A stretch of 64,000 bases of DNA from an uncultured SAR86 cluster bacterium (GTDB taxonomy: Bacteria; Pseudomonadota; Gammaproteobacteria; Magnimaribacterales; D2472), in assembly GCA_902511425.1 (NCBI GenBank), contig CABXFE010000002.1:1943-65942 (forward strand), in the 5' to 3' direction. The position numbers and the translations under genes were made by a program. Of this stretch, positions 20,714-45,954 are shown one piece after another. Within the stretch, counting starts at the first letter, position 1; each line of letters begins with the position of its first letter. A model generated the notes under the pieces. That model had not been told where the DNA came from and made no database searches. It saw only the letters and a list, made by a program, of their open reading frames with translations.

Positions 20714-20752
20714 TAAAATATCTGCATCAGCTAGAACAGATAGGTAAACATT

Positions 20753-21751: not shown

Positions 21752-21785
21752 TTGCTTATGCTAACAACTTTTTGATTTTTAAATT

Positions 21786-24067: not shown

Positions 24068-24075
24068 ATTTTTAT

Positions 24076-25887
24076 ATGAAAAATAAGAGCAATATTTTTT
24101 TTGACCTAGTTCACTATTTACAAATTTTCCAAAAATATTTAGGTCCTAAAATTTATATTGTAACTGCCCTTTCTTTGATCGCAGCTATATCAGAAGGTGT
24201 AGGATTCTTAATTGTTTTGCCTTTATTTGAAGTTCTTGGCACCTCAGGTACTGAGGATGAATTAACCGGTATAGGAAAGCTTTTATTTAATTTTTTTATC
24301 TACTTGGGCTGGGATGGCTCCCCAATAGTTTTAATTATTGCAATTACAATTACTTTTTTACTCAAGGGATTGCTTGTTTTTGGTTCCATGGCGTTCAATG
24401 CCTACCTTATTGCACAGCTTCTTAGAGAGCTAAAAGAAAGGTTATTTGATCATTATAGCGTTATGGATTACCAGTACTATTCAAGTCGTGATACTGGTCA
24501 TTTTACCAATGTTATGAATAATCAAATTAACACTATGTTAATTGCCTTTAGATCAATGATGAGGCTCGGTTCAGAATTCGTTATGGGAGCTGTTTATGTT
24601 GGATTAGCATTTGCAGTTTCATGGAAATTTGGTGCAATGGCAATATTATTTGGCTTAGTGCTTTTATTTGTTTTTCAAGGATTAAATATTTATGTACGAA
24701 GTCTTTCTAGAAAGACCGCCAAAGAAAGCGGCATTCTCTCTAAGTTGTTAATACAATATCTTCATGCTTTTAAGTATTTAATATCCACCAATCAATCACA
24801 TCATCTAAGATATAAATTTTTTGAATCTGTGGATAGGTTTGTTGACTTTGAGTTAAGAAGACGAGTTGCTGAGACGCTAACATTTTCCTTAAGAGAGCCA
24901 ATTTTGGTAGTTGCAGTCATGATTATCATTGGCGCGCAAATCGCTTACTTCAATGAACCAATAGGGCCAATCCTTGTTTCAATAGCTTTATTTTATCGAG
25001 GGCTAAATTCCTTCCATGGAATGCAACTACACGGTCAGTTGATGCTTGATCAAATTGGCGCAGTAGAAATGGTCAATGATGAATTTAATAGGCAAATGCA
25101 CAATATTGAACATGATGCGGACATTTCAATGGATACCTTTTCAGAGTCGGTTGAGTTTCAAAATGTAAACTTTTCGTATGGAGATGAGTTTGATAATGCA
25201 CTGTCCAACATTGATATTAAAATTAGAGCATTTCAATCAGTAGCTTTTGTTGGCTCATCTGGAGCGGGTAAATCAACCATCGTTGATTTGTTAACACTAA
25301 TACTAAGACCAACAAGTGGAAACATTTTAATAGATGGACAAAATTCATCATTGTTAAAATCTAGCTCATGGCGATCACAAATTGGGTATGTTTCACAAGA
25401 TATGGTGGTTTTTGATGATTCAATAGCTAATAATATTTCTATGTGGCAAGGAGATATAGAAGAAAATCCAGAGCTGCTTTTCCAAATAAAAAAAGCATGC
25501 ATGCAGGCAAATATTTCTGATTTCATTGAATCATTGCCAGAGCAATATAATACTCAAGTTGGCGATCGAGGCATCAAATTATCAGGCGGGCAGAAACAAA
25601 GACTTTTTATAGCTAGAGAGTTATTTAGACAGCCAAATATTTTATTATTGGATGAAGCTACAAGTGCTCTTGATACTGACTCAGAAAGTTTTATTCAAGA
25701 ATCTATAGACAGCCTAAAAGGATCAATTACTTTAGTAATTATCGCTCATAGACTTTCTACAATAAGAGATGTTGATTATGTTTATGTCCTTGATCAGGGC
25801 TCTATTATCGAATCAGGCCCATATCAAACATTGCGAGATAAAAAAGGTTCCCATTTAGATCAATTGATAGAAAAACAAACGCTATGA
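24076..25887 (+). CDS. fused TMD-NBD ABC exporter, MsbA/PglK-like
   Basis: About 330 aa with six hydrophobic segments, then Walker A GSSGAGKST, signature LSGGQKQR and Walker B ILLLDEATSALD. Confidence 0.85.
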   Translation: MKNKSNIFFDLVHYLQIFQKYLGPKIYIVTALSLIAAISEGVGFLIVLPLFEVLGTSGTEDELTGIGKLLFNFFIYLGWDGSPIVLIIAITITFLLKGLLVFGSMAFNAYLIAQLLRELKERLFDHYSVMDYQYYSSRDTGHFTNVMNNQINTMLIAFRSMMRLGSEFVMGAVYVGLAFAVSWKFGAMAILFGLVLLFVFQGLNIYVRSLSRKTAKESGILSKLLIQYLHAFKYLISTNQSHHLRYKFFESVDRFVDFELRRRVAETLTFSLREPILVVAVMIIIGAQIAYFNEPIGPILVSIALFYRGLNSFHGMQLHGQLMLDQIGAVEMVNDEFNRQMHNIEHDADISMDTFSESVEFQNVNFSYGDEFDNALSNIDIKIRAFQSVAFVGSSGAGKSTIVDLLTLILRPTSGNILIDGQNSSLLKSSSWRSQIGYVSQDMVVFDDSIANNISMWQGDIEENPELLFQIKKACMQANISDFIESLPEQYNTQVGDRGIKLSGGQKQRLFIARELFRQPNILLLDEATSALDTDSESFIQESIDSLKGSITLVIIAHRLSTIRDVDYVYVLDQGSIIESGPYQTLRDKKGSHLDQLIEKQTL

Positions 25888-25930
25888 TCAAGTATGATTT
25901 TACTCGAGCTTAATGCTTTTGCCCTAAACA

Positions 25931-26998
25931 ATGAAAATTACAGACCTTAGAAAGTACGATAGCCTATACGTACTTGCAAAAAAAATGGGTAGTGGAAATA
26001 TTCTTAGATCCTATCTACAGCTAGATGAAAATCTACCTCTTCCACTTGGTATATCGCACGGTGTAGATATGAATCATCTTCATGAAGCTCAGGATATTTC
26101 CTCAATCGAACCTTTGCATTGGTGTTATAACGAAGTTATTGCTAAAAGAGCGGATGGAATTAAACAATGTGCTCATCTTCCTCATCCTTGGATCATATTA
26201 AAAGAGCTTAATTCTAGGCAAGCACCATCAAACGAATTGTTAATTATTGGTCCCCCAGATGGAAAGACAAATAATTTAAATTTATTAAAAAGCTTAAAAA
26301 AGAAAAAAATTAACAAAGGAGATGTTTTAATTAAGCAAAGAGGAGATATAGAGATATCAAAAAATTTCTGGATCAATGAAGGGTATGGTGTTGTTACTGC
26401 CGGCAGCAGTAATGATGAATTTTACAATAGGTTGTTTTGCTTGATTTCAAAATATGAAGAAGTTGTCAGTTGCTCAATGAGTAGCGCGCTTATATTCTCA
26501 GCTGCGCTTGGAAAAAAATGCTCAGTTCTAGAGGATTATCTTATGACTACCTATGAACTATCCAGCTATGCAAATTTTATTAATTTCAAAGGATCAGTCG
26601 CTCCTAAAATACTTGATATGATCAAGAAAGGTCAGAATGCCAATCTTATAAACTTTGCTGAGAATTTATTGGGTATTAGTTATTTAGATCAACCAATGAA
26701 AATGAAGAATAAATTATTAATTAATATTGAGAAGATCAAAACGCCAATACATCATCACACCTCTAGACCACTTTTTTTAAAGAAATTTTATGAAATTATA
26801 GCTCTTAAACTAAATAAACCATCTCTTACCAAGATGAGATTCATAGATATTGTGAAAAGTATTTCAAGCCCAAGGGTTTCAATCGTTACTAAGAATGAAA
26901 TCAGCATTTATTTATTGGGCATGAATGATTCAAACTTTTCTTCCTCGACAGTCAAATATCAAGCTAATATAACAGAGCCCGGAAGAGCAATTGATTAA
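25931..26998 (+). CDS. hypothetical protein (no family recognised)
   Basis: Long ORF in operon context between the ABC exporter and GT4 genes. No TM segments or known motifs apart from an HLPHPW segment. Confidence 0.5.
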   Translation: MKITDLRKYDSLYVLAKKMGSGNILRSYLQLDENLPLPLGISHGVDMNHLHEAQDISSIEPLHWCYNEVIAKRADGIKQCAHLPHPWIILKELNSRQAPSNELLIIGPPDGKTNNLNLLKSLKKKKINKGDVLIKQRGDIEISKNFWINEGYGVVTAGSSNDEFYNRLFCLISKYEEVVSCSMSSALIFSAALGKKCSVLEDYLMTTYELSSYANFINFKGSVAPKILDMIKKGQNANLINFAENLLGISYLDQPMKMKNKLLINIEKIKTPIHHHTSRPLFLKKFYEIIALKLNKPSLTKMRFIDIVKSISSPRVSIVTKNEISIYLLGMNDSNFSSSTVKYQANITEPGRAID

Positions 26999-27012
26999 AT
27001 ATTTCGTGTTAT

Positions 27013-28203
27013 ATGAAACCTAAAATAATTTTCTTAACTAGAAATGGTTTAATGGAGCCCCTGGGTCAGTCACAAGTCTTAAGATACCTGATTGGTTTAT
27101 CTAAGGATTTCAATTCCACAATTATTTCACTTGAAAAAAAGAATGATATTAAAAATACTTCACTAAAGATTTCTATCCAATCTCAATGCGATGAAAATAA
27201 TGTAAATTGGGTGGCAAAAAAATACACAAATTTTTTTGGCCCCTTTTCTCATGTAATTGATATTTTAAAGATGATTGTAACGTGCTTTATTGAGGCCAAA
27301 AAAGGAGCTAATCTTATTCATGCAAGAAGCTATATTCCCGCTTTAGCAGCTATGATAGTAGGAAAAATTCTCAATATTAATTACATTTTTGATATGCGAG
27401 CATTGTGGCCAGAAGAATTAATAACATCTGGGCGCATTAAACGTGACTCCTTTTTACATAAAATATTACTTTTACTCGAGCGACACGCTATTAAAAATGC
27501 CTTTTCAGTAGTCACTCTTACAAATGCTTCTCTTGCATATATATTTGATTTATATGAGCATGAGATTTGTCATAAAAAGGTTGTTGTCATTCCAACCTGC
27601 ACAGATCTTGAAAAATTTTATCCTAGTAACAAAAAGTCTGATTACGTAATTGGTTGCAGCGGATCAGTCTTGAGTGGTTGGTTTGATCTTGATAAGCTGG
27701 CAGTCTTTTATTCATTCGTAGCCAAAAAAAATCCTTTTATGAAATTTGAAGTTACAACAAAAGACAATCACGTAATAGTTACAGAATTTCTCCATAGAAG
27801 AGGTGTTCCTATAGATCGCCTTAGAGTATTTAGCTCAACAGTTGAAAATATGCCAAGTGTAAACCAGCATCAATGCGCATCAGTAATGTTCTATAAAGGA
27901 AATCAATTATCAGAATTGGGAAGATCTCCTACAAGAATGGCTGAGGTTTTAGGGTGTGGCAATCCAGTAGTTTCCAATAGCGGTGTTGGAGATGTTGCCG
28001 AGATTGTAAATCAATATAATGTTGGAGTGATATTAGATAATTGTGATGAAAATAGTTTAGAGCTAGCATATGAGTTATTTATTGAGCTGGTCTCAAATTC
28101 AAACACTTCTCATCGATGCAGAGAAGCGGCAGAGAAAGTTTTTTCAATCTCAAGCGGAGTGAGGAGTTATGCTGAGATTTACAATCAAGCAAAATCATTC
28201 TAA
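27013..28203 (+). CDS. GT-B fold glycosyltransferase (family 4-like)
   Basis: The C-terminal donor-binding region SPTRMAEVLGCGNPVVSNSGVGDVAEIV is typical of GT4/GT1-type enzymes. Confidence 0.65.
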   Translation: MKPKIIFLTRNGLMEPLGQSQVLRYLIGLSKDFNSTIISLEKKNDIKNTSLKISIQSQCDENNVNWVAKKYTNFFGPFSHVIDILKMIVTCFIEAKKGANLIHARSYIPALAAMIVGKILNINYIFDMRALWPEELITSGRIKRDSFLHKILLLLERHAIKNAFSVVTLTNASLAYIFDLYEHEICHKKVVVIPTCTDLEKFYPSNKKSDYVIGCSGSVLSGWFDLDKLAVFYSFVAKKNPFMKFEVTTKDNHVIVTEFLHRRGVPIDRLRVFSSTVENMPSVNQHQCASVMFYKGNQLSELGRSPTRMAEVLGCGNPVVSNSGVGDVAEIVNQYNVGVILDNCDENSLELAYELFIELVSNSNTSHRCREAAEKVFSISSGVRSYAEIYNQAKSF

Positions 28204-28266
28204 AGATAAATTAAAATAAGTCATTTAATAAATTTTTATCATGAGCGTATCTTATAATCATTACAA

Positions 28267-29349
28267 ATGAAAACTTATAAAATCTTATGTTTTGCTTTAT
28301 ATGGTGAACAAGCTGCAAGTAACAGGGTCCGTTTAGGTCAATATAAGGAAGAGTTATATTCTTCTGGGCTTGAACTTAAGATTAACTCATTACTCATCAA
28401 TGAATATATTGTTGCGCTTTCTAACAAAACTTCACTACCTTTTTTAAAGTTACTTCGTTCTTTTTTTGAACGAATTAAGCTGTTACTCTTCAGCCAAGAA
28501 TATGATTTATTAATTGTGCATTGCGAACTGTTTCCATTTCTACCTGGTTGGGTAGAGCAACTTCTTTTACGAAAACCATATATATATGATTTTGATGATG
28601 CATTTTACCTTAAATATAGTTCGGGTAAGTACAGATTACTTAAGCCATTTTTAGGTTCTAAATTTAAGAGAATTATTAAAAACGCATCTTTTATTACTGC
28701 TGGCAATAAAAACCTAGCAAATTATGCAAAGAAATATAATCCCAATGTAATCATTTTACCTAGCGTGGTTGATACAAATATTTATTATAAAAAAGATAGG
28801 AAACCTAATAGTTGTTTTACACTGGGTTGGATCGGTTCACCATCAACTGCAATTTATCTAGAAAAATTAGTCAAGCCCCTTGCATCGTTAGGTAAGAAAA
28901 TTCCTCTCAAGCTTATTATTGTAGGTGCACAAGGTCCAAGTATTCAAAATGTGATTGTTGAGTCAATACCTTGGTCTCTAGAAGATGAGGTTGATCTAAT
29001 CAACCAATTTGATGTCGGGTTAATGCCACTAAATGATGATGAGTGGTCAAGGGGAAAGTGTGCATATAAATTGATTCAATGCATGGCATGCGAAGTGTGT
29101 GTAATAGCATCTCCAGTTGGCTCAAATGTCGATGTTGTAAATGATAGCAGTGGCTTCCTGGCTGAAAGCGATCAGGATTGGTATGATAGTCTGTTTAAAT
29201 TATCCCAAGATATCTCTTTACGGGAGAAACTGGGAAAGGCTTCCGCAAATAGAATTATGCAAAATTATTCATTACAAACCAATAAGCCTTTATTGATAAA
29301 TGCAATCAGCAAAGCCATGCATATTAACAAAAATGAAAAAGAATATTGA
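28267..29349 (+). CDS. GT-B fold glycosyltransferase (family 4-like)
   Basis: Motifs GWIGSPST and GKCAYKLIQCMACEVCVIASPVGSNVDVV, a layout resembling the GT4 C-terminal domain. Confidence 0.6.
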   Translation: MKTYKILCFALYGEQAASNRVRLGQYKEELYSSGLELKINSLLINEYIVALSNKTSLPFLKLLRSFFERIKLLLFSQEYDLLIVHCELFPFLPGWVEQLLLRKPYIYDFDDAFYLKYSSGKYRLLKPFLGSKFKRIIKNASFITAGNKNLANYAKKYNPNVIILPSVVDTNIYYKKDRKPNSCFTLGWIGSPSTAIYLEKLVKPLASLGKKIPLKLIIVGAQGPSIQNVIVESIPWSLEDEVDLINQFDVGLMPLNDDEWSRGKCAYKLIQCMACEVCVIASPVGSNVDVVNDSSGFLAESDQDWYDSLFKLSQDISLREKLGKASANRIMQNYSLQTNKPLLINAISKAMHINKNEKEY

Positions 29350-30175
29350 CCTAAAAACTGTAAAATCTTTTGGAGATGAATGGTCTAGATTTGATCAGTC
29401 AATTATGAGTGAAGAAGAATCAAAAAAAATATTTGATGAATATTTTGCAATTTTTCCTTGGAATTCTTTGCCACAAAATCCAGAAGGGTTTGATATGGGC
29501 AGTGGAAGTGGGAGATGGGCTAGATGGGTTGCACCAAAAGTTGGAATTTTAAACTGCATTGACCCATCTGATGCTTTAGAAATTTCTCAAAAAAATCTAC
29601 ATGAACATACAAATATAAAATATTTCAAAGCTTCGGTTGATGATGATATCAATCTTGAGGGCACCCAAGACTTTGGATATTCTTTGGGTGTGCTTCATCA
29701 TATTCCAAATACACAAGACGCTCTGACTTCATGTACAAAATTATTAAAACCTGGAGCACCTTTCCTTTTGTACCTTTATTATTCTTTTGATAATAGATCT
29801 ACTATTTATAGGTTTATTTGGAAATTTTCAGATATTATCAGGAAATTTATATTTAGACTTACGCCTAGATTAAAACACTTTATTACTGATTTAATTGCCT
29901 TATTCATTTATTTTCCTTTCACAAGAATTGCAAGATTATTTGATCTAATTAATCTTGAATCATCCAATATCCCCCTTTCTTACTATAAAAATCATAGTTT
30001 CTATACAATGAGAACAGATGCCAGGGATAGATTTGGAACCCCTTTGGAGCAAAGGTTCTCTAAACAGGAAATTCATAGCATGATGACTTCAGCAGGACTG
30101 GATAATATAATTTTTTCTGACCATGCCCCTTTTTGGTGTGCCGTTGGTTCTAAAAAAATAACAGAGAGAAAATAA
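29333..30175 (+). CDS. class I SAM-dependent methyltransferase
   Basis: Motif I GFDMGSGSGRWARWVA and post-I region, plus LKPGAPFLLYLY. I chose ATG 29333 (MKKNIDLK). The track ORF start 29300 lies inside the upstream gene. Confidence 0.7.
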   Translation: MKKNIDLKTVKSFGDEWSRFDQSIMSEEESKKIFDEYFAIFPWNSLPQNPEGFDMGSGSGRWARWVAPKVGILNCIDPSDALEISQKNLHEHTNIKYFKASVDDDINLEGTQDFGYSLGVLHHIPNTQDALTSCTKLLKPGAPFLLYLYYSFDNRSTIYRFIWKFSDIIRKFIFRLTPRLKHFITDLIALFIYFPFTRIARLFDLINLESSNIPLSYYKNHSFYTMRTDARDRFGTPLEQRFSKQEIHSMMTSAGLDNIIFSDHAPFWCAVGSKKITERK

Positions 30176-30176
30176 T

Positions 30177-32111
30177 TTGTGTGGCATAACCGGTTTCTTA
30201 AATTTACATTCTCCAAGAAAAGATAAAGCACTGAATGTGCTACAAAAAATGACGAGCTCTCTTGAGCACAGAGGCCCAGATGCAACAGGGTATTGGATGG
30301 ATCCAAATGGAATGATTGCATTAGGCCATCGCAGATTGTCTATTTTAGATCTTTCAGACGCTGGATCTCAACCCATGGTGTCTATATGTGGAAGATATGT
30401 TCTAACTTTTAATGGAGAGATTTATAATCATCTTTCTTTAAGAAAAGATCTTGAAAAAAATACTTCTATTCAATGGAAGGGAACCTCTGATACAGAGACT
30501 TTAATTGAAGCCATTTCACATTTGGGGCTAATTAATACTTTAAAAAAGCTCAAAGGAATGTTTGCATTTGCTTTGTGGGATAAAAAACTTGAAATTCTGT
30601 CTCTTGCAAGAGACCCTATGGGTGAAAAGCATTTGTATTATGGGTGGCAAGGGAACACTTTTTTATTTGGATCAGAGTTAAAGGCTTTAAAGGAGCATCC
30701 AGATTTTCAAAAAAAAGTATCTGAAAATTCATTATCATTATTTCTTCTTCATAATTATATACCGGCACCGTATTCAATCTTTGAAGGAATAAAGAAATTA
30801 CTTCCTGCTCAAGTTGCCAGCATGAATCTCAAAAAGGGCTTTGCTGAGCCTGAGTTAATTTCATATTGGTCAATTTCTGAAATATCTTCAGAAAAAAATA
30901 TTAAATTTTCTGATGAAAATACTGCGATAGATGGACTTGAAAAAATATTGAGTCATTCTGTTCAATCTCAAATGTTATCTGATGTTCCAATTGGATCATT
31001 GTTATCTGGCGGCATAGATTCGACCTTGATAACAGCAATTATGCAAAATAATTCTACAAGACCTGTGAAAACTTTTACCATTGGATTTGATGATAAGAAT
31101 TTTAATGAAGCAAGACATGCTGCTTCTATTGCAGATTATCTGAAAACAGATCATCACGAATTATATGTTTCCTCTTCAGATTCATTATCCCTTGTTCCAA
31201 ATTTAGCTAGGTATTGGGATGAGCCTTTTGCTGATTCATCTCAAATCCCCACTTATTTGGTTATGCAGCTTGCTAGCAATGAAATCAAGGTTGCATTATC
31301 TGGTGATGGAGCTGACGAATTATTTGGAGGCTATAACAGATATAAATATGCTCCAAAAATATGGAATCAGCTTGGATGGCTACCACTTAGCTTTAAAAAA
31401 ATTTTAAAAACTATTTCTACATCAATTCCGGCATCAACAATTGATTCAGCTTCAAAACCGTTTTCAAAAATATTGGGGATCTCTCAACTTGGTCAAAAAA
31501 TACATAAACTTGGCAATAGATTTTCTAATCTTAACTCAATTGATTCTTTTTACTATTCGCTTGTTACAGAATGGCCGGATGTAAATCAGGTGCTGAGGGA
31601 GCCCCAATATCCATCATACTTACTGAATGATTTTAAAAGGTGGCCTCAATTTCAAAATCCAGTCTCGCGCATGATGGCTTTGGATACTTTAACCTATCTA
31701 CCTGATGACATCTTAACTAAAGTTGATAGAGCATCCATGGCAGTGTCTATTGAGAGTAGGGCGCCATTTTTAGATCTTGATGTAGTTGAATATGCTTTTA
31801 ATTTACCACTGAAATACAAAGTCAATAATAATCAATCAAAATGGATATTGCGCCAAATTCTGAACAGACATATTCCCGAGCACCTTATCAATAGACCAAA
31901 AATGGGCTTTGGGTTACCTATTGATGAGTGGTTAAGGAGCCCTTTAAGGGAATGGGCAGATGAATTACTTAATAAAGATAAATTGTTGCAGCAAGGTTTT
32001 TTTAATGCTGAGTATGTTCAAAATATCTGGGTTAAGCATTGTAAAGGTGAGCAATTTGGCTCAAGATTATGGGGTATTTTAATGTTTCAAAATTGGCTTG
32101 AGCAACAATAA
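30177..32111 (+). CDS. asparagine synthase (glutamine-hydrolysing) family amidotransferase, WbpS-like
   Basis: TTG start followed by CGITGF (Ntn Cys2), and the PP-loop LLSGGIDSTLI. 644 aa. Located inside the polysaccharide cluster. Confidence 0.85.
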   Translation: MCGITGFLNLHSPRKDKALNVLQKMTSSLEHRGPDATGYWMDPNGMIALGHRRLSILDLSDAGSQPMVSICGRYVLTFNGEIYNHLSLRKDLEKNTSIQWKGTSDTETLIEAISHLGLINTLKKLKGMFAFALWDKKLEILSLARDPMGEKHLYYGWQGNTFLFGSELKALKEHPDFQKKVSENSLSLFLLHNYIPAPYSIFEGIKKLLPAQVASMNLKKGFAEPELISYWSISEISSEKNIKFSDENTAIDGLEKILSHSVQSQMLSDVPIGSLLSGGIDSTLITAIMQNNSTRPVKTFTIGFDDKNFNEARHAASIADYLKTDHHELYVSSSDSLSLVPNLARYWDEPFADSSQIPTYLVMQLASNEIKVALSGDGADELFGGYNRYKYAPKIWNQLGWLPLSFKKILKTISTSIPASTIDSASKPFSKILGISQLGQKIHKLGNRFSNLNSIDSFYYSLVTEWPDVNQVLREPQYPSYLLNDFKRWPQFQNPVSRMMALDTLTYLPDDILTKVDRASMAVSIESRAPFLDLDVVEYAFNLPLKYKVNNNQSKWILRQILNRHIPEHLINRPKMGFGLPIDEWLRSPLREWADELLNKDKLLQQGFFNAEYVQNIWVKHCKGEQFGSRLWGILMFQNWLEQQ

Positions 32112-32157
32112 GCTTAGTAAGTTTTAATTTTGTCTTATATTATTTAATTTAAAAATT

Positions 32158-33243
32158 ATGACAACTTACTGGATTCTCTTTTTTATTGCAGCTGGTTTTG
32201 CTCTAATTTCTCAGTCAAGAGCACCCATTCTTGGAGATAACCTATATTCAACAAAACTATATTCTGAATGGATTGTTTTCATTTTCATTTTAACGATATT
32301 AATTGGCTTTCGGTTTGAAGTTGGTGGAGACTGGTATATATATAATGAGCATGTTTCTGAGGCAATAGACTCAACTCTTGCAAGCGCATTAACTAAGTAT
32401 GGTGATCCAGGGTATTATTTTTTAAATTGGATGAGTGCTAAATCTGGTTTTGATATATATGGCGTTAATTTAATATGTGGACTGGTTTTTGCGATTGGCT
32501 TATCTAAATTTTGCAGAAGTTTGCCTAGACCTTGGTTAGCGTTAACAGTTGCTATTCCTTATTTATTTTTAGTGGTCGCATTAGGTTATTCAAGGCAAGG
32601 GGTTGCAATTGGCTTTGGAATGCTTGCTTTGGTTGCATTTGGTCGCAAGGATATTAAATGGTTTGTTTTGTGGGTTTTTTTAGCAGCCTCTTTCCATAAA
32701 TCTGCTGTTTTGCTTCTACCAATTGCTTTAATAGCAAATACAAAAAATTCGTATCTTACTATTTTTGGGTTTTTAATATTAGGAGTAGGAGCATTTTTTT
32801 TATATTTAGAGCAATACATAGAAAAGCTTTATCAAAACTATGTTACAGCCCAATCGCAATCAAGCGGAGCATTTATTAGGCTTTCTATGAATGCAGTTCC
32901 CGCATTAATTTATTTACTTTTTAGAGATAGATTTCACTTTTCAGAGAATGAGAAGGAAATTTGGAGATGGTTTTCTATTCTATCTATAGTAATGCTTATA
33001 TTATTTTTTTTAATTTCAGCATCAACTGCTTTAGATCGAATTGCACTATACATGATACCTCTTCAGCTAGTAATCTTTTCAAGACTGCCTGACGCCTTTG
33101 GTGTAGACACTTTTTCACGCACTTTTATTTTTACATTAATATTATTTTATTACGCATTTGTTATGTTTGTGTGGTTAAATTTTGCTTATCACGCATACAT
33201 GTGGATACCATATAAATCCTTTTTAGTTGAGATGGTAATTTGA
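32158..33243 (+). CDS. EpsG/Wzy-like polysaccharide polymerase (polytopic membrane protein)
   Basis: About 10 hydrophobic segments, with an EpsG-like GGDWYIYNEH near the N-terminus. No nucleotide-binding motifs. Confidence 0.6.
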   Translation: MTTYWILFFIAAGFALISQSRAPILGDNLYSTKLYSEWIVFIFILTILIGFRFEVGGDWYIYNEHVSEAIDSTLASALTKYGDPGYYFLNWMSAKSGFDIYGVNLICGLVFAIGLSKFCRSLPRPWLALTVAIPYLFLVVALGYSRQGVAIGFGMLALVAFGRKDIKWFVLWVFLAASFHKSAVLLLPIALIANTKNSYLTIFGFLILGVGAFFLYLEQYIEKLYQNYVTAQSQSSGAFIRLSMNAVPALIYLLFRDRFHFSENEKEIWRWFSILSIVMLILFFLISASTALDRIALYMIPLQLVIFSRLPDAFGVDTFSRTFIFTLILFYYAFVMFVWLNFAYHAYMWIPYKSFLVEMVI

Positions 33244-39145: not shown

Positions 39146-40987
39146 ATGAAATCAAAATACCTTTTCAACACTTTCTTTGCATTAAGAACTTTCATTGTTT
39201 TAAATATTTTTTTTACCACTTCTGTATTTTCTCAGGATATTTCAGAGGAGTTTCTGGATAGCTTGCCAGAAGGTCTTAGAGATCAAGTGGAGGCCCAAAC
39301 AGAAAAGAGTGAGCAAGAACAAGAGGTTGAAGGACTATTTAGATCAGATACATCTGTTTATAACAATAAAAAAATTCTTCAAAACCTTAAAGACCAGATT
39401 GAAGATCTAGGCGAACGAATCTTATTTGAAGAAAATAATATTAAAACACTTAATAGGTTTGGTGAAGAATTCTTCAGTACGATTCAATCGTCATTTATGC
39501 CCATTAATATTCCTAATTTGAGTAGTAACTACATAATTGATGTAGGTGATGAATTAAGTATCTTGTTGACTGGTATCAAAAACCAAGAGCATAAGCTTTT
39601 TGTTCAACGTGATGGATCTTTGATAATACCGGAATTTGGCAAGATATATGTTTCAGGAAACTCACTAGACGAATCTTCAGCATTAATTAGGAATTTTATT
39701 GAAACTTCCGCAGTTGGAACTAGTGCATTCGTTACCTTATCCGCAATAAGAGACGTTCAAATTATCATGCTCGGCGGAGTAAAGAGTCCAGGAATTTATA
39801 CCATAAGTGGAGGTTCAAATCCTGTTTTTGCTTTAAATGCTGCAGGAGGTATATCTGAAAAAGGCTCTTTCAGAAAAATTGATCATAGGAGAAATGGTAA
39901 AACCATTCAGTCAATTGACTTATATGATATTTTTGTTTTTGGAGATTATAATATTAAACATCAGATGAGGTCTGGTGATGTTATTTTTGTTCATCCTCCT
40001 CAAATTCAAATTCCAATCTCAGGAGGAATTTATAATCCTAATATTTATGAGATGGTTGAAGGGCAGTCAGTTAACGATTTAATTGAATATGCAGGCGGAT
40101 TTAGAGAAGGTTTCTATGGCTATAATAAGATTGCTGTTAGGAGAACTTCAATAGATCGGGCTTTAACATTAGAGGTATCAATTGATGAAATTTCTGATTT
40201 TAAGCTGCAACACCGAGATATTGTTAGCGTACCTTTTTATGAAAATCAATTTGAAAAAATTAAATCAGTTATTATCGAAGGAATGGTTAATAAACCAGGT
40301 GAATATTTTATTAATGACAGCGAAAAACTCTCTTCAGTCATAAAAAGAGCTGGTGGTTATAAAGAAAAAGCATATGTTTTTGGAGGAATGCTTTTAAGAG
40401 ATGATGCATTAGAAAAAGAGCAATTGTATGCAGAAAAAGTATATTCAGATACCATTAATTTTTTAGTCTCAAGTATAGCTAAGCCGGGCACCTCATTTGA
40501 TTCTTCAGCTGTTCAATTATTAATAGAAGAGCTTAAATCCCAAAATTTTACTGGTCGAATAATAACAGAATTCGATTTAGATCAAATTAATGAAAACAGT
40601 GCGCTAGACTTATTATTACAAGATAAAGACAGAATTATTATTCCGCAGATTCAAAAGGTCGTATATCTTTTCGGAGATTTAAATGCGCCCACAATATTAA
40701 ATTACAACTCGGATTACGGAATTAATGATTACATCAGATTGGCTGGTGGAATAAAGGACTCTGCAACTAATGATTTATTAGTAATTAACCCTGATGGAAT
40801 CTCTCAACAGATCAGTAGAAGTTTTTCTTTGTTTAATAGAAGCCAAGTAGATATATATCCTGGCTCAATTATTTATGTACCAAGAGACATTGGTCAATTA
40901 TCCGGTATTTACTATGCATCTACTGTTGCTCCTGTTCTTAGCAGCTTAGCCATATCTTTAGCATCATTAAATAGCATTAAGGATTAG
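39146..40987 (+). CDS. outer-membrane polysaccharide export (OPX) protein, long Wza/KpsD-like form
   Basis: Signal peptide without a lipobox. Poly_export-like segment YIIDVGDELSILL...VQRDGSLIIPEFGKIYVSGNSLDE. Several SLBB-like repeats (GGV/GGF...G motifs). C-terminal amphipathic/hydrophobic helix VAPVLSSLAISLASL. Confidence 0.8.
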   Translation: MKSKYLFNTFFALRTFIVLNIFFTTSVFSQDISEEFLDSLPEGLRDQVEAQTEKSEQEQEVEGLFRSDTSVYNNKKILQNLKDQIEDLGERILFEENNIKTLNRFGEEFFSTIQSSFMPINIPNLSSNYIIDVGDELSILLTGIKNQEHKLFVQRDGSLIIPEFGKIYVSGNSLDESSALIRNFIETSAVGTSAFVTLSAIRDVQIIMLGGVKSPGIYTISGGSNPVFALNAAGGISEKGSFRKIDHRRNGKTIQSIDLYDIFVFGDYNIKHQMRSGDVIFVHPPQIQIPISGGIYNPNIYEMVEGQSVNDLIEYAGGFREGFYGYNKIAVRRTSIDRALTLEVSIDEISDFKLQHRDIVSVPFYENQFEKIKSVIIEGMVNKPGEYFINDSEKLSSVIKRAGGYKEKAYVFGGMLLRDDALEKEQLYAEKVYSDTINFLVSSIAKPGTSFDSSAVQLLIEELKSQNFTGRIITEFDLDQINENSALDLLLQDKDRIIIPQIQKVVYLFGDLNAPTILNYNSDYGINDYIRLAGGIKDSATNDLLVINPDGISQQISRSFSLFNRSQVDIYPGSIIYVPRDIGQLSGIYYASTVAPVLSSLAISLASLNSIKD

Positions 40988-41018
40988 TAAACAATTCTTT
41001 TGTTTGATCTGCAATAGG

Positions 41019-43211
41019 ATGAAAATAACGCAAAAGATATTTCTATCTTTTTTCGTGCTTCAATCTTTTATTTCTATAGAGTTACAAAGCTCTATTTACG
41101 ATTATAGATTTCCTAATAGCACATACCCTAGCTACAGTAATTACGGAACAATAGGAATAATCCAAATGCCTAACGCAAGAATGATGCCAGAGGGATCTCT
41201 AGGCTTCTCTTGGAGTGATATGGATCCTTATAAGAGAGGCTCAATTGTTGCTTACCCTTTTTCTTGGTTTGAAGCTTCATATCAATATACAGATATTGGA
41301 AATGCTTTATACAGTAACATAGAGGCTTTTAGTGGAAAACAAACATATAAAGATAAGAGTTTTGATGCAAAGTTTTTACTTTTTAAGGAAACAAAGTACT
41401 TGCCTGCAGTTGCAGCAGGCGCTAGAGATCTAGCAGGTACAGGTGTTTTTTCATCAGAATTTATTGTTGCCTCCAAAAGAGTCAATAATTTTGATTTTTC
41501 TATTGGGCTAGGCTGGGGAATTTTAAACAATAATCATACCTTTTCTAACCCTTTTACGGTTCTTTCAAATCGATTTGAATCCAGGTCCGTAAATGAGGGC
41601 TTGGGCGGAAATATAAATACTGATGCATTTTTTGCTGGTGATACAGGAGTATTCGGTGGTGTTGAGATATACCTCCCTAACTTGAAAGGCCTGAGAATAA
41701 AATTAGAATACGATGGAATTGATTACACTAAGGAAGGCTTTCCTTTTGGGGAAGATTCATTTAAGTATGCATTTAGATCTGTAAGACCACAGGAATCAAA
41801 ATTTAATTACGGATTTGTATACCCAGTTAATGATAGCTTCCACTTAAAATTTAATTACGTCAAGGGTAATACATTTAGTTTTGGATTTTCAATTCAAGCT
41901 AACTTAGGTAAGAAAAATTCAGTTATTCCAAAGGAAGATCCATATGTGAAAACTCCTAAAGCTGACGTGGTAAGAAGTGTTACAGCAAAGAAAGAAAGCT
42001 TAGTATATTTATCATCATTGAGATCTCTTAGAAGTAATAATCTTTTTATTCAGAATGCTAAAATTGAAGATTCTCAATTAGATATTGTCTTTACCCAATC
42101 AAAGCATTCAAGCTTTGCTCGTGCAGCCGGAAGAGCATTTACAGTCCTTGATGAGGTTTCTCCAGATTATATAGATACTTTCAAGATATCAAATATAAAT
42201 GGTGGTGTTGGGATGCATACAATTGAAATCAAAAGAGATGCATTTAAGCGAAATCAAGAGAGCAAATTGCATAAACTAGCTACAAAAAATATCAAAGTTG
42301 AAAGGTTTAAGTATAAACCTCAGGATTATACGTATGCCCCAAAACCTACTCTTCCTGCATTTTTTTATAAGGTCGTTCCTACAGTAAGGTCTCAGATTGG
42401 AGGGCCAGATGGTTTTTATTTTGGGGATCTAAGGTTATCGCTACATACTGAAACTTTATTTAAAAAGAATCTAAGTCTTATTACCTCTGCTTCAGTTGGC
42501 ATAGTAGATAATTATGATAATCTTAGGTTAGCATCTGATAGTTCGCTACCTCATGTTAGAACAGATATTGTTAAGTATTTAAAATCATCAAAAGATTATT
42601 CTGTAAGAAGGATGCAACTGAATTATTTCTTAAATCCATACAAAGACATTTATGCCAAGTTGTCTGGAGGGCTATTAGAAGAAATGTTTGGTGGTGTTGG
42701 TGGCGAGATTTTGTATAGGCCTTTTAATCGTACTTGGGGAATTGGAGCTGAGTTATGGCGGGTAAGGCAAAGGGGATATAATCAGATGTTTGATTTTGAG
42801 CCTGATACAGCTTACCAAACTACAACAGGACATATTAATATTTATGTTAAAGAACCAAGATCGCAAGTCCTTTTAACACTTAGAGGTGGAAAATTTTTAG
42901 CTCAAGACTCTGGAATAAATTTTGATTTTTCTAGACGATTTAAAAGCGGTCTTAGGGTTGGAGCTTTTTTCTCTCTTACAGATATCTCTGAAGCTGAGTT
43001 TGGAGAAGGAAGTTTTGATAAGGGGTTCTACTTTTATATTCCTGTAGACATATTTTTTAATTTTTATAATAAAGGTAATGCGGCCTTTGGTTTAAGACCT
43101 ATTACAAGAGATGGAGCAGCTATTTTAGTTCATTCGCATCATCTGTGGGGTATTACTGAGCAGGCTCAAGGCCATACGATTTTGAGAGATTTGGATGATA
43201 TATACGATTAG
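41019..43211 (+). CDS. YjbH/GfcD-family outer-membrane protein
   Basis: Signal peptide followed by GTIGIIQMPNARMMPEGSLGFSW, which resembles the N-terminal signature of YjbH-family (DUF940) proteins. About 730 aa and rich in Gly/aromatic beta-strand patterns. The track ORF begins at TTG 41004; ATG 41019 is preferred. Confidence 0.65.
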   Translation: MKITQKIFLSFFVLQSFISIELQSSIYDYRFPNSTYPSYSNYGTIGIIQMPNARMMPEGSLGFSWSDMDPYKRGSIVAYPFSWFEASYQYTDIGNALYSNIEAFSGKQTYKDKSFDAKFLLFKETKYLPAVAAGARDLAGTGVFSSEFIVASKRVNNFDFSIGLGWGILNNNHTFSNPFTVLSNRFESRSVNEGLGGNINTDAFFAGDTGVFGGVEIYLPNLKGLRIKLEYDGIDYTKEGFPFGEDSFKYAFRSVRPQESKFNYGFVYPVNDSFHLKFNYVKGNTFSFGFSIQANLGKKNSVIPKEDPYVKTPKADVVRSVTAKKESLVYLSSLRSLRSNNLFIQNAKIEDSQLDIVFTQSKHSSFARAAGRAFTVLDEVSPDYIDTFKISNINGGVGMHTIEIKRDAFKRNQESKLHKLATKNIKVERFKYKPQDYTYAPKPTLPAFFYKVVPTVRSQIGGPDGFYFGDLRLSLHTETLFKKNLSLITSASVGIVDNYDNLRLASDSSLPHVRTDIVKYLKSSKDYSVRRMQLNYFLNPYKDIYAKLSGGLLEEMFGGVGGEILYRPFNRTWGIGAELWRVRQRGYNQMFDFEPDTAYQTTTGHINIYVKEPRSQVLLTLRGGKFLAQDSGINFDFSRRFKSGLRVGAFFSLTDISEAEFGEGSFDKGFYFYIPVDIFFNFYNKGNAAFGLRPITRDGAAILVHSHHLWGITEQAQGHTILRDLDDIYD

Positions 43212-43812
43212 ATTGCTTTTAATTCTTTTGTTACTTTCCTGCTGTAGCTATGTTAGCTATTCACAAGTTGTCCCTATGATTAAAGTTGCTACAATTGGAG
43301 TTCCAAATGAAAGTATTACTTTAAAAGATTTTCAAAATGCTGAATATTCTTTTTTAAAAGTTCGCATTGGAAGATCTGCAAACGCTAATCTAACATTAGC
43401 GACGGTTAAAAATAATATTCTTGAATGGGTCTCAGCAACTAATGAGAAAATTTATACTTATAACGGTAAGATTATCAAAGTATCAGGAATTGGGAAGAAC
43501 ATAAGCTTTATCACTTATTCTAAATTTGCAATTGAGCCCCAAACTATTGATTCCTTTGATGTTCAGCTATATAACCCTGGCGCTGTAATACAGCAAGTAT
43601 CTGATATGCGCTTTGTGGATTATAGAGAAATTTATCATCTCGATGAAAAAATAAATACACAATACTTTAAGGAATATGTTATTACCAAAGAATTTAGATG
43701 GAAGTATGTTAATCACTATTGGGTAGATGATTCTACTAATAGAGTAATCAAGACAAAGCAGTCAATTCACCCAGACTTCCCAAGTCTAGAAATAGAATAT
43801 TTCTATAAATAA
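43195..43812 (+). CDS. YjbF/GfcB-family lipoprotein
   Basis: Lipobox LLLSCC. The segments AEYSFLKVRIG...EWVSATNEKIYTYNGKIIKV and VNHYWVDDSTNRVIKTKQSI align by eye with E. coli YjbF as I recall it (WHNRYWIDSEGQIRQSEQYL). 17-nt overlap with the yjbH-like gene. Confidence 0.65.
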   Translation: MIYTIRLLLILLLLSCCSYVSYSQVVPMIKVATIGVPNESITLKDFQNAEYSFLKVRIGRSANANLTLATVKNNILEWVSATNEKIYTYNGKIIKVSGIGKNISFITYSKFAIEPQTIDSFDVQLYNPGAVIQQVSDMRFVDYREIYHLDEKINTQYFKEYVITKEFRWKYVNHYWVDDSTNRVIKTKQSIHPDFPSLEIEYFYK

Positions 43813-43817
43813 AAGAC

Positions 43818-43848
43818 AAAAAAAACGCTGCAAATGCAGCGTTTTTTT
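43818..43848. terminator. bidirectional Rho-independent terminator between convergent genes
   Basis: A8 run (43818-43825), stem CGCTGC (43826-43831), loop AAAT, stem GCAGCG (43836-43841), then T7 run (43842-43848). A/T runs on both sides allow termination in both directions. Confidence 0.8.
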
Positions 43849-43859
43849 ATAGAAATAAT

Positions 43860-44690
43860 TTAGGATCCTGGGGCTGTAGCAGTTGAAACTACTGTTCCAC
43901 CGTAAGATGACTCTTCTCCAACTGGAACCTCTATTTGAATCTCAACAGTGGACTCGATATCTTGAATTACAGATATCTGAGTAGGATCTATTTCGACTTC
44001 TTGAGTAGCTCCTGATGGTATATCTACGTCAATTACAATTGGAACTTCTGTTTCAACAATGATATCTACGGGTACTTCAATGTATTGAGAAGTTCCAAGG
44101 CCAATGTCATCGGCATTGATTGTTTCATCGTTAAAAGCTCCACCAGGGAAGTCATTCAACATTACGTTAATTGTTTGCCCTAACTCAGCAATACCATCGT
44201 TACCTGGGTCATTTGGATTAATGCTAAGGTCAATCGGCAAGTTGGTTTGAGTAGCAACTGTTGAAGTAACTGTGTCTGTACTCGTAGTCGTATTAGTAAG
44301 TGACGTTGTAGTTGTATTTGTGTTAGTACTTGTCGTAGTACTGGTCAAAACAGGATCAGTTCTGTATTGACTTTGTGTCACAGTTACTGAAGTTGGATTT
44401 ACTGTCTGCGTAGTGGTATTAATTGTTGAAATTATTACTGTAGGAGCAGGAGTCGGTGCAGGAGCGGCTTCTCCACCCCCAGATGAATCTGCTGCAGCGG
44501 CTATTGCTGCTGCGGCTGCAACTGCTGCTGCAATAGCGCCAGCGCTAAGAGATCCTGATGATGCTTTTTTGGCTTTTTCAGCAGATCCAGCACTTTTAGG
44601 CTCACTGCCCTCATCTGCCATAGCTTGAGAACCAAAGAACGGTGCTAGTAATGCTACCAAATAACGAAACTTGTTTTTGATCTTTGCCAT
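43860..44690 (-). CDS. secreted Ala/Thr-rich low-complexity protein, N-terminal half resembling YjbE/GfcA
   Basis: Strong SD (TAGGAG, 10 nt upstream of the ATG). Signal peptide ending AMA. Ser/Ala segment, poly-Ala hydrophobic run AIAAAVAAAAAIAAAA, GGGE, Pro-Ala linker, a Thr-rich tract of about 60 aa, then an acidic Val/Ile/Glu/Asp-rich C-terminal half. Confidence 0.6.
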   Translation of the reverse strand: MAKIKNKFRYLVALLAPFFGSQAMADEGSEPKSAGSAEKAKKASSGSLSAGAIAAAVAAAAAIAAAADSSGGGEAAPAPTPAPTVIISTINTTTQTVNPTSVTVTQSQYRTDPVLTSTTTSTNTNTTTTSLTNTTTSTDTVTSTVATQTNLPIDLSINPNDPGNDGIAELGQTINVMLNDFPGGAFNDETINADDIGLGTSQYIEVPVDIIVETEVPIVIDVDIPSGATQEVEIDPTQISVIQDIESTVEIQIEVPVGEESSYGGTVVSTATAPGS

Positions 44691-44951
44691 CTTGTTTAAA
44701 CTCCTAGTATAAACTGTTAATTTTTATTATCTTAAATAAAAGCAATAAAAGCAATATTTTGACCTATTCTTATATTATTGCAAGAAGTAGATGAATATTT
44801 ATTTAAAGTATTATAAGTAAGTATTATTTTCTGTCGAGCATATTATCACTAGTCGAATTGAATATGCAATTGAAAAATAGACATATTTGTTTCTATTTCA
44901 AAAATAGCTCCATTCAAGAATAGCTTTTGATAAGTAATAAAGCATGTGTTA

Positions 44952-44980
44952 TTTACACATCTATTAATAGAAACTATAGT
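44952..44980 (+). promoter_or_regulatory. sigma70-type promoter for tRNA-Pro
   Basis: TTTACA (44952-44957), a 17-nt spacer, then TATAGT (44975-44980). The predicted start is about 10 nt upstream of the mature tRNA 5' end at 44998. Confidence 0.5.
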
Positions 44981-44997
44981 GGCTAAATTTTTATTTT

Positions 44998-45074
44998 CGG
45001 GATGTAGCGCAGTCTGGTAGCGCACCTCGCTGGGGGTGAGGTGGTCGTCGGTTCAAATCCGGCCATCCCGACCA
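44998..45074 (+). tRNA. tRNA-Pro (anticodon GGG)
   Basis: Folded by hand. Acceptor CGGGATG/CATCCCG, D arm GCGC-AGTCTGGTA-GCGC, anticodon stem CCTCG/TGAGG with loop CTGGGGG, T arm GTCGG-TTCAAAT-CCGGC, discriminator A and an encoded CCA. Confidence 0.9.
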
Positions 45075-45075
45075 T

Positions 45076-45954
45076 TTATTTAGATTTATTGATTACTTCC
45101 TCAGCATACCAATTAATCTCAGCAATCATCCCCTCAAGAGTTCTGTTATCTGGCCCACCTTCATAAGTATTCCTAAATGCTACAATTACTTCAGTTGCTC
45201 CTAGTGCTTCTAGTTGCTTTATACCTTCTGGCGAGTATGCAGCTTCGCCCATCACTTGAAATTGATAATTATGATGATCTAATGTCCCATATTCTTTTCT
45301 GTAAGAATTGATTTGATCTATAAGATTTTTTGTTTCTTCTAGGCTTAATCCAGCGCTTATCCAGCCATCTCCAACCCTTGCAGCCCTTTTTAAAGCAAGT
45401 TTTGAATGACCTCCAATTAAAATGGGTACAGGTTTTGAGGGCGCAGGGCAAAGCTTTAATTCTGGAATATCATAAAACTCACCTTTGTATGAGAAGTATT
45501 CCCCATTCATCAGTCCTCTAAGAATATCAATTTGTTCATCCATCCTTTTGCCGCGTTTTTCCCACCTTTCTCCAGTAGCTAAAAAATCTTCATACCAAGG
45601 ACTCACTCCAACACCGAAATGAAATCTATTATTGGTCATAACTCCCAAAGTAGTTACAAACTTAGCTGTTGTTACAGCTTGTCTGGGTGCTAGCTTGTAA
45701 ACAGATGTTGAAAATTCTAGCTTCTCTGTAACAGCTGCAATCGCTGGAATAATAGAAAATGGCTCTAAGAAGGGAACCCCATCAAGAAACTCTCTGCTAC
45801 CGTCATCATTGTATGGATATGTTGAATCACATTCTTTTGGATAGCAGATGCTATCAGGAAATGTAATTGCATCAAAGCCTGCGGCTTCAGCAGCTTTACC
45901 AAGCTCTAAATAAAATGAAGGATCGCACATTGATGGATGGTATGAAAAACGCAT
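45076..45954 (-). CDS. luciferase-like (LLM class) flavin/F420-type oxidoreductase
   Basis: 292 aa TIM-barrel-like protein. The N-terminus MRFSYHP...LGKAAEAAGFDAITFPDS, plus GVGVSPW and VPILIGGHSKLALKRAARVGDGW, are typical of LLM-family proteins. Confidence 0.65.
   Translation of the reverse strand: MRFSYHPSMCDPSFYLELGKAAEAAGFDAITFPDSICYPKECDSTYPYNDDGSREFLDGVPFLEPFSIIPAIAAVTEKLEFSTSVYKLAPRQAVTTAKFVTTLGVMTNNRFHFGVGVSPWYEDFLATGERWEKRGKRMDEQIDILRGLMNGEYFSYKGEFYDIPELKLCPAPSKPVPILIGGHSKLALKRAARVGDGWISAGLSLEETKNLIDQINSYRKEYGTLDHHNYQFQVMGEAAYSPEGIKQLEALGATEVIVAFRNTYEGGPDNRTLEGMIAEINWYAEEVINKSK

Follow-up and report, generated by a model that had tools for sequence, protein, structure and literature searches.

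Class 2 polysaccharide export proteins of the outer membrane (OPX proteins) have the architecture Poly_export-SLBBn-GfcC and are typified by KpsD of Escherichia coli (Saïdi et al. 2022, PMC9603273). Most carry a signal peptide of the signal peptidase I (SPase-I) type, and members of subclass 2A have a median length of 605 residues and lack Wza_C. YjbH/GfcD homologues were found near class 2A (4-5 cases) and class 2B (18-19 cases) genes, and it was proposed that the integrated GfcC modules may contact partner barrels (PMC9603273). In E. coli, GfcB and GfcC bind GfcD (Larson et al. 2021, PMC8592465); the YjbH-type barrel has been reported as a double barrel (PMC8346858). Composite OPX/beta-barrel translocons, EpsY/EpsX and VpsN/VpsM, are established for short OPX proteins (Schwabe et al. 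2022, PMC9601211). Here we describe an OPX gene and its neighbours at positions 39146-44690 of a 64,000-nucleotide stretch (the window; all positions refer to it) of contig CABXFE010000002.1 from an uncultured SAR86 cluster bacterium (assembly GCA_902511425.1), a small-genome, low-GC marine gammaproteobacterium. On balance, the OPX protein joins a front half resembling Wza to a back half resembling GfcC/YjbG, and its gene is followed by yjbH and yjbF. Both the architecture and the docking interpretation that we favour have already been published for class 2 OPX proteins (PMC9603273).

Domain architecture of the OPX protein

The OPX gene (39146-40987, plus strand) encodes a class 2 (KpsD-like) polysaccharide export protein of 613 residues with an SPase-I-type signal peptide. 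There is no cysteine anywhere in the sequence, and the protein is therefore not a lipoprotein. It is 234 residues longer than E. coli GfcE/Wza (379 residues). The first-pass annotation had described a non-lipidated protein about 230 residues longer than Wza, and both statements hold. More than 700 OPX homologues of about 610 residues are present in marine metagenomes.

The front half, residues 126-365 (39521-40240, plus strand), consists of a PES/D1 domain and two beta-grasp domains, equivalent to D1-D3 of Wza. Pfam placed Poly_export (PF02563) at residues 126-185 with 32.5 bits against a cut-off of 28, and three SLBB stretches in the protein were each recognized by PF10531 (E = 1e-19) and PF22461 (E = 8.5e-21). 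In a phmmer search against PDB sequences, Wza (2J58) matched residues 152-303 (E = 3e-10). When a profile of 29 OPX homologues was compared to E. coli GfcE, a Wza paralogue, using hhalign, residues 151-364 aligned with GfcE 118-344 (97.9%, E = 5e-13); this alignment stops exactly at the start of the Wza membrane helix D4.

The back half, residues ~366-580 (40241-40885, plus strand), comprises a beta-grasp domain bearing a hairpin, followed by a second beta-grasp domain. Pfam matches to GfcC were weak: Caps_syn_GfcC_C (PF06251) matched residues 522-580 with 20.9 bits against a cut-off of 20, and GfcC_N (PF20616) matched residues 390-491 with 17.5 bits, below its cut-off of 22.1. The module was therefore checked by phmmer, hhalign, AlphaFold2 with Foldseek, and a reciprocal hidden Markov model (HMM) search. 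As a single sequence, the OPX protein matched the GfcC structure 3P42 over residues 414-578 (E = 0.0027, phmmer against PDB). The 29-homologue profile matched an alignment of E. coli YjbG and GfcC (94.8% probability, E = 5e-8, hhalign), with OPX 452-578 aligned to YjbG 93-217; the two have in common a TGR motif after the helical hairpin and a PGSIIY strand.

The AlphaFold2 model of the OPX protein contains a PES domain, then four beta-grasp domains, then a C-terminal helix; its predicted local distance difference test score (pLDDT) is 69.8 overall, with the domains mostly at 70-90. The third beta-grasp domain (373-499) bears a long helical hairpin (helices 419-444 and 453-464), and such a hairpin in a beta-grasp domain is the hallmark of GfcC domain D2. 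A structure prediction to be compared with Wza and GfcC had been proposed in the first-pass annotation, and Foldseek matched the model to both: against the PDB it recovered Wza with E = 1e-17, and against GfcC 3P42 it gave E = 4e-11 over 231 aligned columns, with a template modelling (TM) score of 0.61 on the GfcC side. An HMM built from E. coli YjbG and GfcC matched only the C-terminal part in 17 of 20 OPX proteins and never the first two beta-grasp domains. In the reciprocal search, a stand-alone YjbG from another gammaproteobacterium (locus L024, described below) matched positions 373-582 of the OPX-family HMM (E = 7e-13). The first-pass annotation had spoken of extra SLBB-like repeats that might replace YjbG/GfcC. 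Three SLBB stretches are indeed present, but the C-terminal part is a specific GfcC-like module and not just generic SLBB; as a replacement for YjbG/GfcC, the C-terminal ~215 residues with their helical hairpin bear the suggestion out.

The module replaces the Wza D4 helix, and is in turn followed by a highly conserved C-terminal helix rich in Ala, Ser, and Leu (residues 586-611, SGIYYASTVAPVLSSLAISLASLNSI; 40901-40978, plus strand), a candidate for outer-membrane insertion or for docking. Most columns of this helix are invariant among the 29 OPX homologues, whose overall identity is 48-86%. AlphaFold2 predicted it at residues 587-606 with pLDDT below 50; its mean Kyte-Doolittle (KD) hydropathy is 1.15 and its hydrophobic moment 0.56. 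Pfam found no match of the OPX protein to Wza_C (PF18412) at E<=0.1. This absence and the end of the GfcE alignment before D4 point to subclass 2A, to judge from the sequence, though a conserved C-terminal helix of about 25 residues exists.

All the elements of class 2 are found here: Poly_export, SLBB, and a C-terminal GfcC module. The Pfam GfcC match alone does not reach the hmmscan cut-off of 1e-5 used in PMC9603273; the HHpred step of that study corresponds to hhalign and Foldseek here. A class 1 (Wza-type) assignment does not fit, given that the protein has no cysteine, no Wza_C match, and a module of ~215 residues after the D3 equivalent.

The OPX-YjbH-YjbF cassette and its probable export route

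The OPX gene is co-transcribed with genes for a YjbH/GfcD barrel and a YjbF/GfcB lipoprotein. After a spacer of 31 nucleotides follows yjbH (41019-43211, plus strand), which encodes an outer-membrane beta-barrel protein of 730 residues; an alternative TTG start at 41004 would give a product of 735 residues. PF06082 matches this product over profile positions 1-657 of 658 (E = 4.1e-188, 627.7 bits). The yjbF gene (43195-43812, plus strand) encodes a lipoprotein of 205 residues, which matches PF11102 (E = 2.4e-22, 80 bits against a cut-off of 25.9) and has a lipobox-like LLLLS-C with the Cys at about residue 16/17. The yjbF gene overlaps yjbH by 17 nucleotides and, because of this overlap, translational coupling like that in E. 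coli is suggested. A gap of 47 nucleotides separates yjbF from a convergent gene (43860-44690, minus strand) and contains a bidirectional intrinsic terminator (43819-43848) common to both convergent transcripts. It is a perfect hairpin, AAAAAAACGCTGCAAATGCAGCGTTTTTTT, with a 13-bp stem that includes five GC pairs, a run of seven A on one side, and a run of seven T on the other. The four genes therefore lie where the first-pass annotation had placed them; the family assignments it gave to the YjbH-like and YjbF-like products are borne out by the full-length PF06082 match and by PF11102 with the lipobox-like sequence, respectively, and the terminator it had noted is there.

The survey covered 81 genomes from this order, of which 51 have a completeness of 90% or more. 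Synteny was taken from contigs encoding homologues and from genome searches; a locus search with the single OPX sequence found no loci, and an alignment-based search found two. In 18 of 19 related loci the gene directly downstream of the OPX gene is yjbH. The same succession of OPX, YjbH, and YjbF, a convergent gene without a Pfam match, an LLM oxidoreductase, and aceE is carried by three long contigs whose OPX proteins are 50-54% identical to the one described here. YjbH was found in 47 and YjbF in 23 of the 81 genomes, always adjoining each other and the OPX gene, and in those 23 yjbF directly follows yjbH; 21 of the 22 genomes with a GfcC-type OPX frame of 583-637 residues also have YjbH (the exception is 88% complete). 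These counts are descriptive, as related genomes are not independent. OPX-YjbH, with or without YjbF, is the usual cassette of this order; its place in the chromosome varies from family to family, and its genes can be separated. The gene-order survey that the first-pass annotation called for thus recovered a recurrent cassette, and its view of the locus as an informative natural experiment overstates the case: the layout is not unusual, being a published class 2 OPX architecture and the normal form across the order.

In four genera (g2, g4, g5, and g10; loci L016-L019) YjbH is shorter (650-700 residues), its Pfam match falls into two pieces, and YjbF was not detected; because none is detectable there, YjbF is therefore dispensable or replaced in these lineages with a short YjbH. 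In genus g12 (e.g., G007, G023, G031, G035, and G047) the GfcC-type OPX proteins are ~923-942 residues long, and neither YjbH nor YjbF was detected in the six genomes searched; these long forms may be self-sufficient and class 2B-like.

Two loci differ in the position of a housekeeping block. In one lineage (L017, G062:C2, 885-9078) about 4.4 kb with a 199-residue open reading frame (ORF), infC, rplT, pheS, and pheT lie between the OPX gene and yjbH. The same block is located directly upstream of the OPX gene in L003 (5240-11752).

We consider it probable that the region is the outer-membrane end of a Wzy-type surface-polysaccharide pathway, in which the OPX protein docks YjbH through its GfcC module to form one export station. 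The OPX oligomer would serve as the periplasmic conduit and receive polymer from the polysaccharide co-polymerase (PCP) and Wzy machinery. Its built-in GfcC module would do the work of free GfcC in E. coli and bind the periplasmic face of the YjbH barrel. YjbF would also be bound to the barrel, so that exporter and barrel would be held together at the outer membrane. Either the polymer itself or a version linked to lipid or to the GfcA-like protein might then cross the membrane via YjbH, the C-terminal helices of the OPX protein, or both.

Several observations weigh against this export station. The similarity to GfcC is marginal by sequence, with PF06251 barely at its cut-off and PF20616 under it, and the 29-sequence OPX profile matched 3P42 with an E value of only 0.47, weaker than the 0.0027 of the single sequence. 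The confidence of the OPX model is moderate overall and falls below a pLDDT of 50 in the C-terminal helix. The co-occurrence counts overstate the support, given the relatedness of the genomes. Genus g12 shows that a GfcC module does not always imply a barrel partner.

It is possible, though somewhat unlikely, that two routes exist side by side. The OPX protein would then be self-sufficient, as has been proposed for KpsD (class 2B), with its C-terminal helices forming an alpha-helical pore for free polymer; YjbH and YjbF would form a separate outer-membrane route for other cargo, for instance lipid-anchored polymer or the GfcA-like Thr-rich protein, and the GfcC module would only tether the two routes to each other or play no part with YjbH. 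The C-terminal helix (586-611) is nearly invariant across the 48-86% identical homologues and, at ~25 residues, long enough to cross a membrane, which fits such a pore, as does the genus that has a GfcC-type OPX protein without YjbH. Larson et al. (PMC8592465) and a modelling paper (PMC11494523) suggest that GfcD exports a lipid- or protein-linked form and GfcE the free polymer, and a GfcA-like gene is constantly found next to the cassette. However, the protein has no Wza_C match, the hhalign alignment with GfcE halts before the D4 helix, and the C-terminal helix is just moderately hydrophobic and was modelled at low confidence. The near-obligate pairing of OPX proteins of ~600 residues with YjbH (21 of 22 genomes) suggests dependence.

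The convergent GfcA-like gene

The convergent gene encodes a GfcA-like secreted protein of 276 residues rich in Ala, Thr, and Pro. A promoter-like site is located at 44810-44837 on the minus strand (TCGACA-16-TATAAT, 11/12 to consensus); it is a candidate from a consensus scan only. The product combines a signal peptide with a poly-Ala hydrophobic segment (residues 45-71, KD maximum 2.06), DSSGGG, a PAPT linker, a Thr-rich tract (15% Thr in the protein), and a variable acidic tail. A conserved core, SLSAGAIAAAVAAAAAIAAAADSSGGG, lies between the signal peptide and the PAPT linker.

Orthologues from 16 related loci have a signal peptide, an acidic stretch, the conserved core, and a Pro/Thr linker, followed by tails that are wholly different in sequence. 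The pattern of the core is G-x-[IV]-A-A-x-[VA]-A-x-A-A-A...[AS]-D-S-G-S-G-G, and the linkers are PAPT, PTPT, PEPT, or poly-Pro. Lengths range from 123 to more than 935 residues, with Ig-like repeats in some. Identity of the 276-residue protein to its counterparts in three close relatives is 59-78% over the first 75 residues and 38-50% over the remainder. A gene with the same core is found beside yjbF/yjbH in nearly all loci examined; this adjacency holds across families of the order (OPX identity down to 38%) despite differing surrounding genes.

Family searches with this protein were negative. Neither Pfam nor NCBIfam gave a family match for the 276-residue product, and Pfam YjbE (PF11106) did not match it or four of its orthologues at E<=10. 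PF11106 recognizes E. coli YjbE and misses E. coli GfcA, and its negative result for the 276-residue protein therefore says little; no NCBIfam model recognizes even E. coli YjbE or GfcA. As their models miss known members, neither library settles GfcA/YjbE membership. BLASTP between two of the GfcA-like orthologues returned no alignment, probably owing to low complexity, and of seven matches to a 140-residue orthologue in a database search, four were unrelated PT-rich lipoproteins. E. coli GfcA has the same layout as the present protein, namely an Ala/Val/Gly hydrophobic segment (KD maximum 2.16), then NDSGDGG, then a tail rich in Thr. With an HMM of the core, GfcA reached 4.6 bits and outscored 2992 of 3000 composition-matched shuffles (p about 0.003), in an alignment that runs from the hydrophobic segment through DSG-GG and into the Thr tail; the same HMM scored E. 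coli YjbE no higher than shuffles.

We read the convergent gene as a GfcA-like partner, with strong support from its conserved adjacency and weak support from its sequence. The first-pass annotation had labelled it YjbE-like, a label that finds weak support: PF11106 does not match, and the likeness, in architecture and a single short motif, is with GfcA, together with the conserved adjacency.

That the gene is a bystander, a fast-evolving surface-protein gene at the island edge that is neither a GfcA/YjbE homologue nor part of the export system, appears quite improbable. It would account for the absence of a PF11106 match, for the failure of the core HMM to score YjbE above shuffles, and for the separate, convergently transcribed unit that has a promoter-like site to itself, and similarity between low-complexity sequences is hard to prove. 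However, PF11106 misses E. coli GfcA too, the core HMM places GfcA above 2992 of 3000 shuffles in an alignment that takes in the hydrophobic segment, DSG-GG, and the tail rich in Thr, and a gene with the same core adjoins yjbF/yjbH in nearly all loci across families.

If the gene is a GfcA-like partner, its product might be a working part or cargo of the system. GfcA itself has been speculated to be glycosylated and exported through GfcD (PMC8592465). We think it unlikely, but worth stating, that the core engages YjbH, YjbF, and the GfcC module of the OPX protein, and that the tail is O-glycosylated and displayed or anchors the capsule. Were this true, Gfc/Yjb systems would generally be devices for glycoprotein display or capsule anchoring, and the clearest evidence from nature would come from the SAR86-type loci, in which the gene is a constant presence and varies strongly.

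Some loci carry much longer proteins at the GfcA-like position. In L017 (9178-11985) and L018 (1178-2575) these are Thr-rich proteins of 465 to 935 residues with a diverged hydrophobic core, followed by Ig-like repeats of the type VITILGDNPATVELG...YTDxGATA; in L018 the gene and yjbH share one orientation instead of converging. The orthologues of L009 (5774-7999) and L010 (5458-8001) exceed 740-847 residues and have a poly-proline run of ~20 residues right after DSSTGG, then many TRTTGATA repeats.

Stand-alone YjbG, island context, and comparison with known systems

The source genome is a metagenome-assembled genome (MAG) of 1.14 Mb, 56% complete. The OPX protein is its sole PF06251 match; none was found elsewhere, although a MAG of this completeness cannot prove absence. 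Because of this limit, the search for yjbG was extended to the 81 genomes of the order. All 35 PF06251 matches in uninterrupted frames were to long frames of 583-942 residues; two other matches were in frames of 372 and 144 residues, neither near the ~250 residues of a separate YjbG. No separate YjbG-like ORF was present in the 20 loci inspected, except in the canonical control locus of another gammaproteobacterium (L024, G282:C1, 2633-7552), where a Wza-like OPX gene (435 residues), yjbF, yjbG (258 residues), and yjbH lie on one strand. In this unfused form the OPX gene is located upstream of yjbF-G-H. A loss of yjbG through assembly error or frameshift was considered and rejected, with a spacer of only 31 nucleotides between the OPX gene and yjbH and overlapping yjbH and yjbF genes. 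The first-pass annotation was thus right that a stand-alone YjbG is missing, but its description of the module as incomplete falls, since YjbG is present as a fused OPX domain; the fusion would make a separate yjbG unnecessary.

YjbH is uncommon in the class as a whole, occurring in 12 of 250 genomes sampled. Ten of these 12 genomes were searched for GfcC_C: one has the canonical yjbF-G-H, and two have YjbH beside a GfcC-type OPX protein of 903-970 residues, numbers that are too small for a test of mutual exclusion between free GfcC and fused OPX.

That the extra C-terminal OPX domains are generic SLBB repeats, with YjbG truly absent or encoded in the unassembled 44% of the genome, deserves very little credence: GfcC is itself made of Wza-like beta-grasp domains, so that weak cross-matches are expected, PF20616 stayed under its cut-off, the profile search against 3P42 gave E = 0.47, and the MAG is just 56% complete, but the hhalign match (E = 5e-8) spans the second hairpin helix, TGR, and the last beta-grasp domain and so goes beyond plain SLBB, the hairpin insert is present in the model, Foldseek aligned 231 columns against ~229-234 GfcC residues, the YjbG and GfcC HMM was restricted to the C-terminal part in 17 of 20 OPX proteins, and no free YjbG was found in the 51 genomes that are at least 90% complete.

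The cassette belongs to a variable island. Upstream of it are sugar-nucleotide genes, glycosyltransferases, a PCP, an ABC exporter, an EpsG polymerase, rmlBDAC-like genes, and ugd. A tRNA-Pro(GGG) gene (44998-45074, plus strand, ARAGORN) lies where the variable island gives way to the conserved flank. In three relatives (L006, L007, and L008; compared over 39146-45954) the LLM oxidoreductase and AceE of the flank are 89-97% identical to those of the window. In contrast, OPX is 50-54%, YjbH 56-62%, and YjbF 36-40% identical, even in a genome of the same genus (G042, locus L007). Identity thus changes at tRNA-Pro from 36-62% on the island side to 89-97% in the flank, and this gene is the right edge of the hypervariable island. 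Because of this difference the export genes belong to the hypervariable glycan island; judged by their identities, they are deeply diverged alleles inside it. In enterobacterial capsule loci, by contrast, the export genes are the conserved part.

The candidate inner-membrane partners lie further upstream. A kinase-less Wzz-type PCP of 300 residues (19811-20713, plus strand; PF02706, E = 2.4e-10) is the only candidate inner-membrane partner of the OPX protein. Five genomes searched for Wzz gave one match each, always in a frame of ~300 residues, and contained neither a GNVR match over the cut-off nor a longer kinase-bearing frame; no Etk-like partner is therefore evident (an Etp phosphatase was outside this search). 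An EpsG-family (Wzy-like) polymerase (32158-33243, plus strand; PF14897, E = 1.9e-51) marks a Wzy-type pathway. Between the PCP and the polymerase lies an ABC exporter with fused transmembrane and nucleotide-binding domains (24076-25887). No Wzx-type flippase family was found among the locus ORFs scanned (19811-33243), and the ORFs at 17282-18331 and 25931-26998 had no Pfam match.

This locus is of value chiefly as a description: its cassette is the standard outer-membrane exporter in a bacterial group that is abundant in the ocean. What is added here is its position inside a hypervariable surface-glycan island and the constant company of a variable GfcA-like protein. Together with these neighbours, the cassette provides a comparative data set for testing the roles of GfcA-type proteins, and the constant, hypervariable GfcA-like neighbour is a more interesting thread than the known architecture.

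Compared to class 2 OPX proteins as described in PMC9603273, the present protein has the same domain order, an SPase-I signal peptide, a length of ~600 residues, and a C-terminal GfcC-like module. KpsD works with KpsE in ABC-transporter (group 2) pathways and has no known barrel, whereas the present locus is of the Wzy type: its Wzz-type PCP is short and lacks a kinase, and YjbH and YjbF are encoded next to the OPX protein.

The EpsY/EpsX and VpsN/VpsM systems resemble the present one in concept: the genome couples an outer-membrane barrel with an OPX protein in which no membrane-spanning domain is proven. Their OPX proteins are D1D2 lipoproteins of at most 280 residues, paired with 18-stranded PgaA-like barrels; in contrast, it is a long OPX protein with both a GfcC module and a C-terminal helix that is paired here with a YjbH-type barrel.

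Each of the five Gfc functions of the E. coli group 4 capsule operon gfcABCDE-etp-etk and its paralogue yjbEFGH has a homologue or a likely counterpart here: the GfcA-like Thr-rich protein, GfcB/YjbF, GfcC/YjbG in the form of a domain, GfcD/YjbH, and the GfcE-like OPX protein. The order differs from gfcABCDE, being OPX-H-F with A convergent, and GfcC is fused to the OPX protein, which is non-lipidated and without the Wza_C helix. A further difference from gfc-etp-etk is that no Etk-type kinase partner was found in the five genomes searched and that there is no stand-alone GfcC; unlike in the group 4 system of E. coli, YjbF is missing in several sister lineages of the order.

OtnG of Burkholderia thailandensis is a GfcC-GfcD fusion (Sathiyamoorthy 2011, as cited in PMC8592465 and PMC4017328). 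As described by these citing papers, it is likewise a fusion occurring in nature, one that makes a free GfcC superfluous and speaks for an interaction between GfcC and the barrel; there GfcC is joined to the barrel, whereas here it is joined to the OPX protein and links the latter to the barrel. The GfcC-OPX fusion is a further hint from nature that the exporter, its helper, and the barrel work as a single unit and, together with OtnG as cited, it links all three components.

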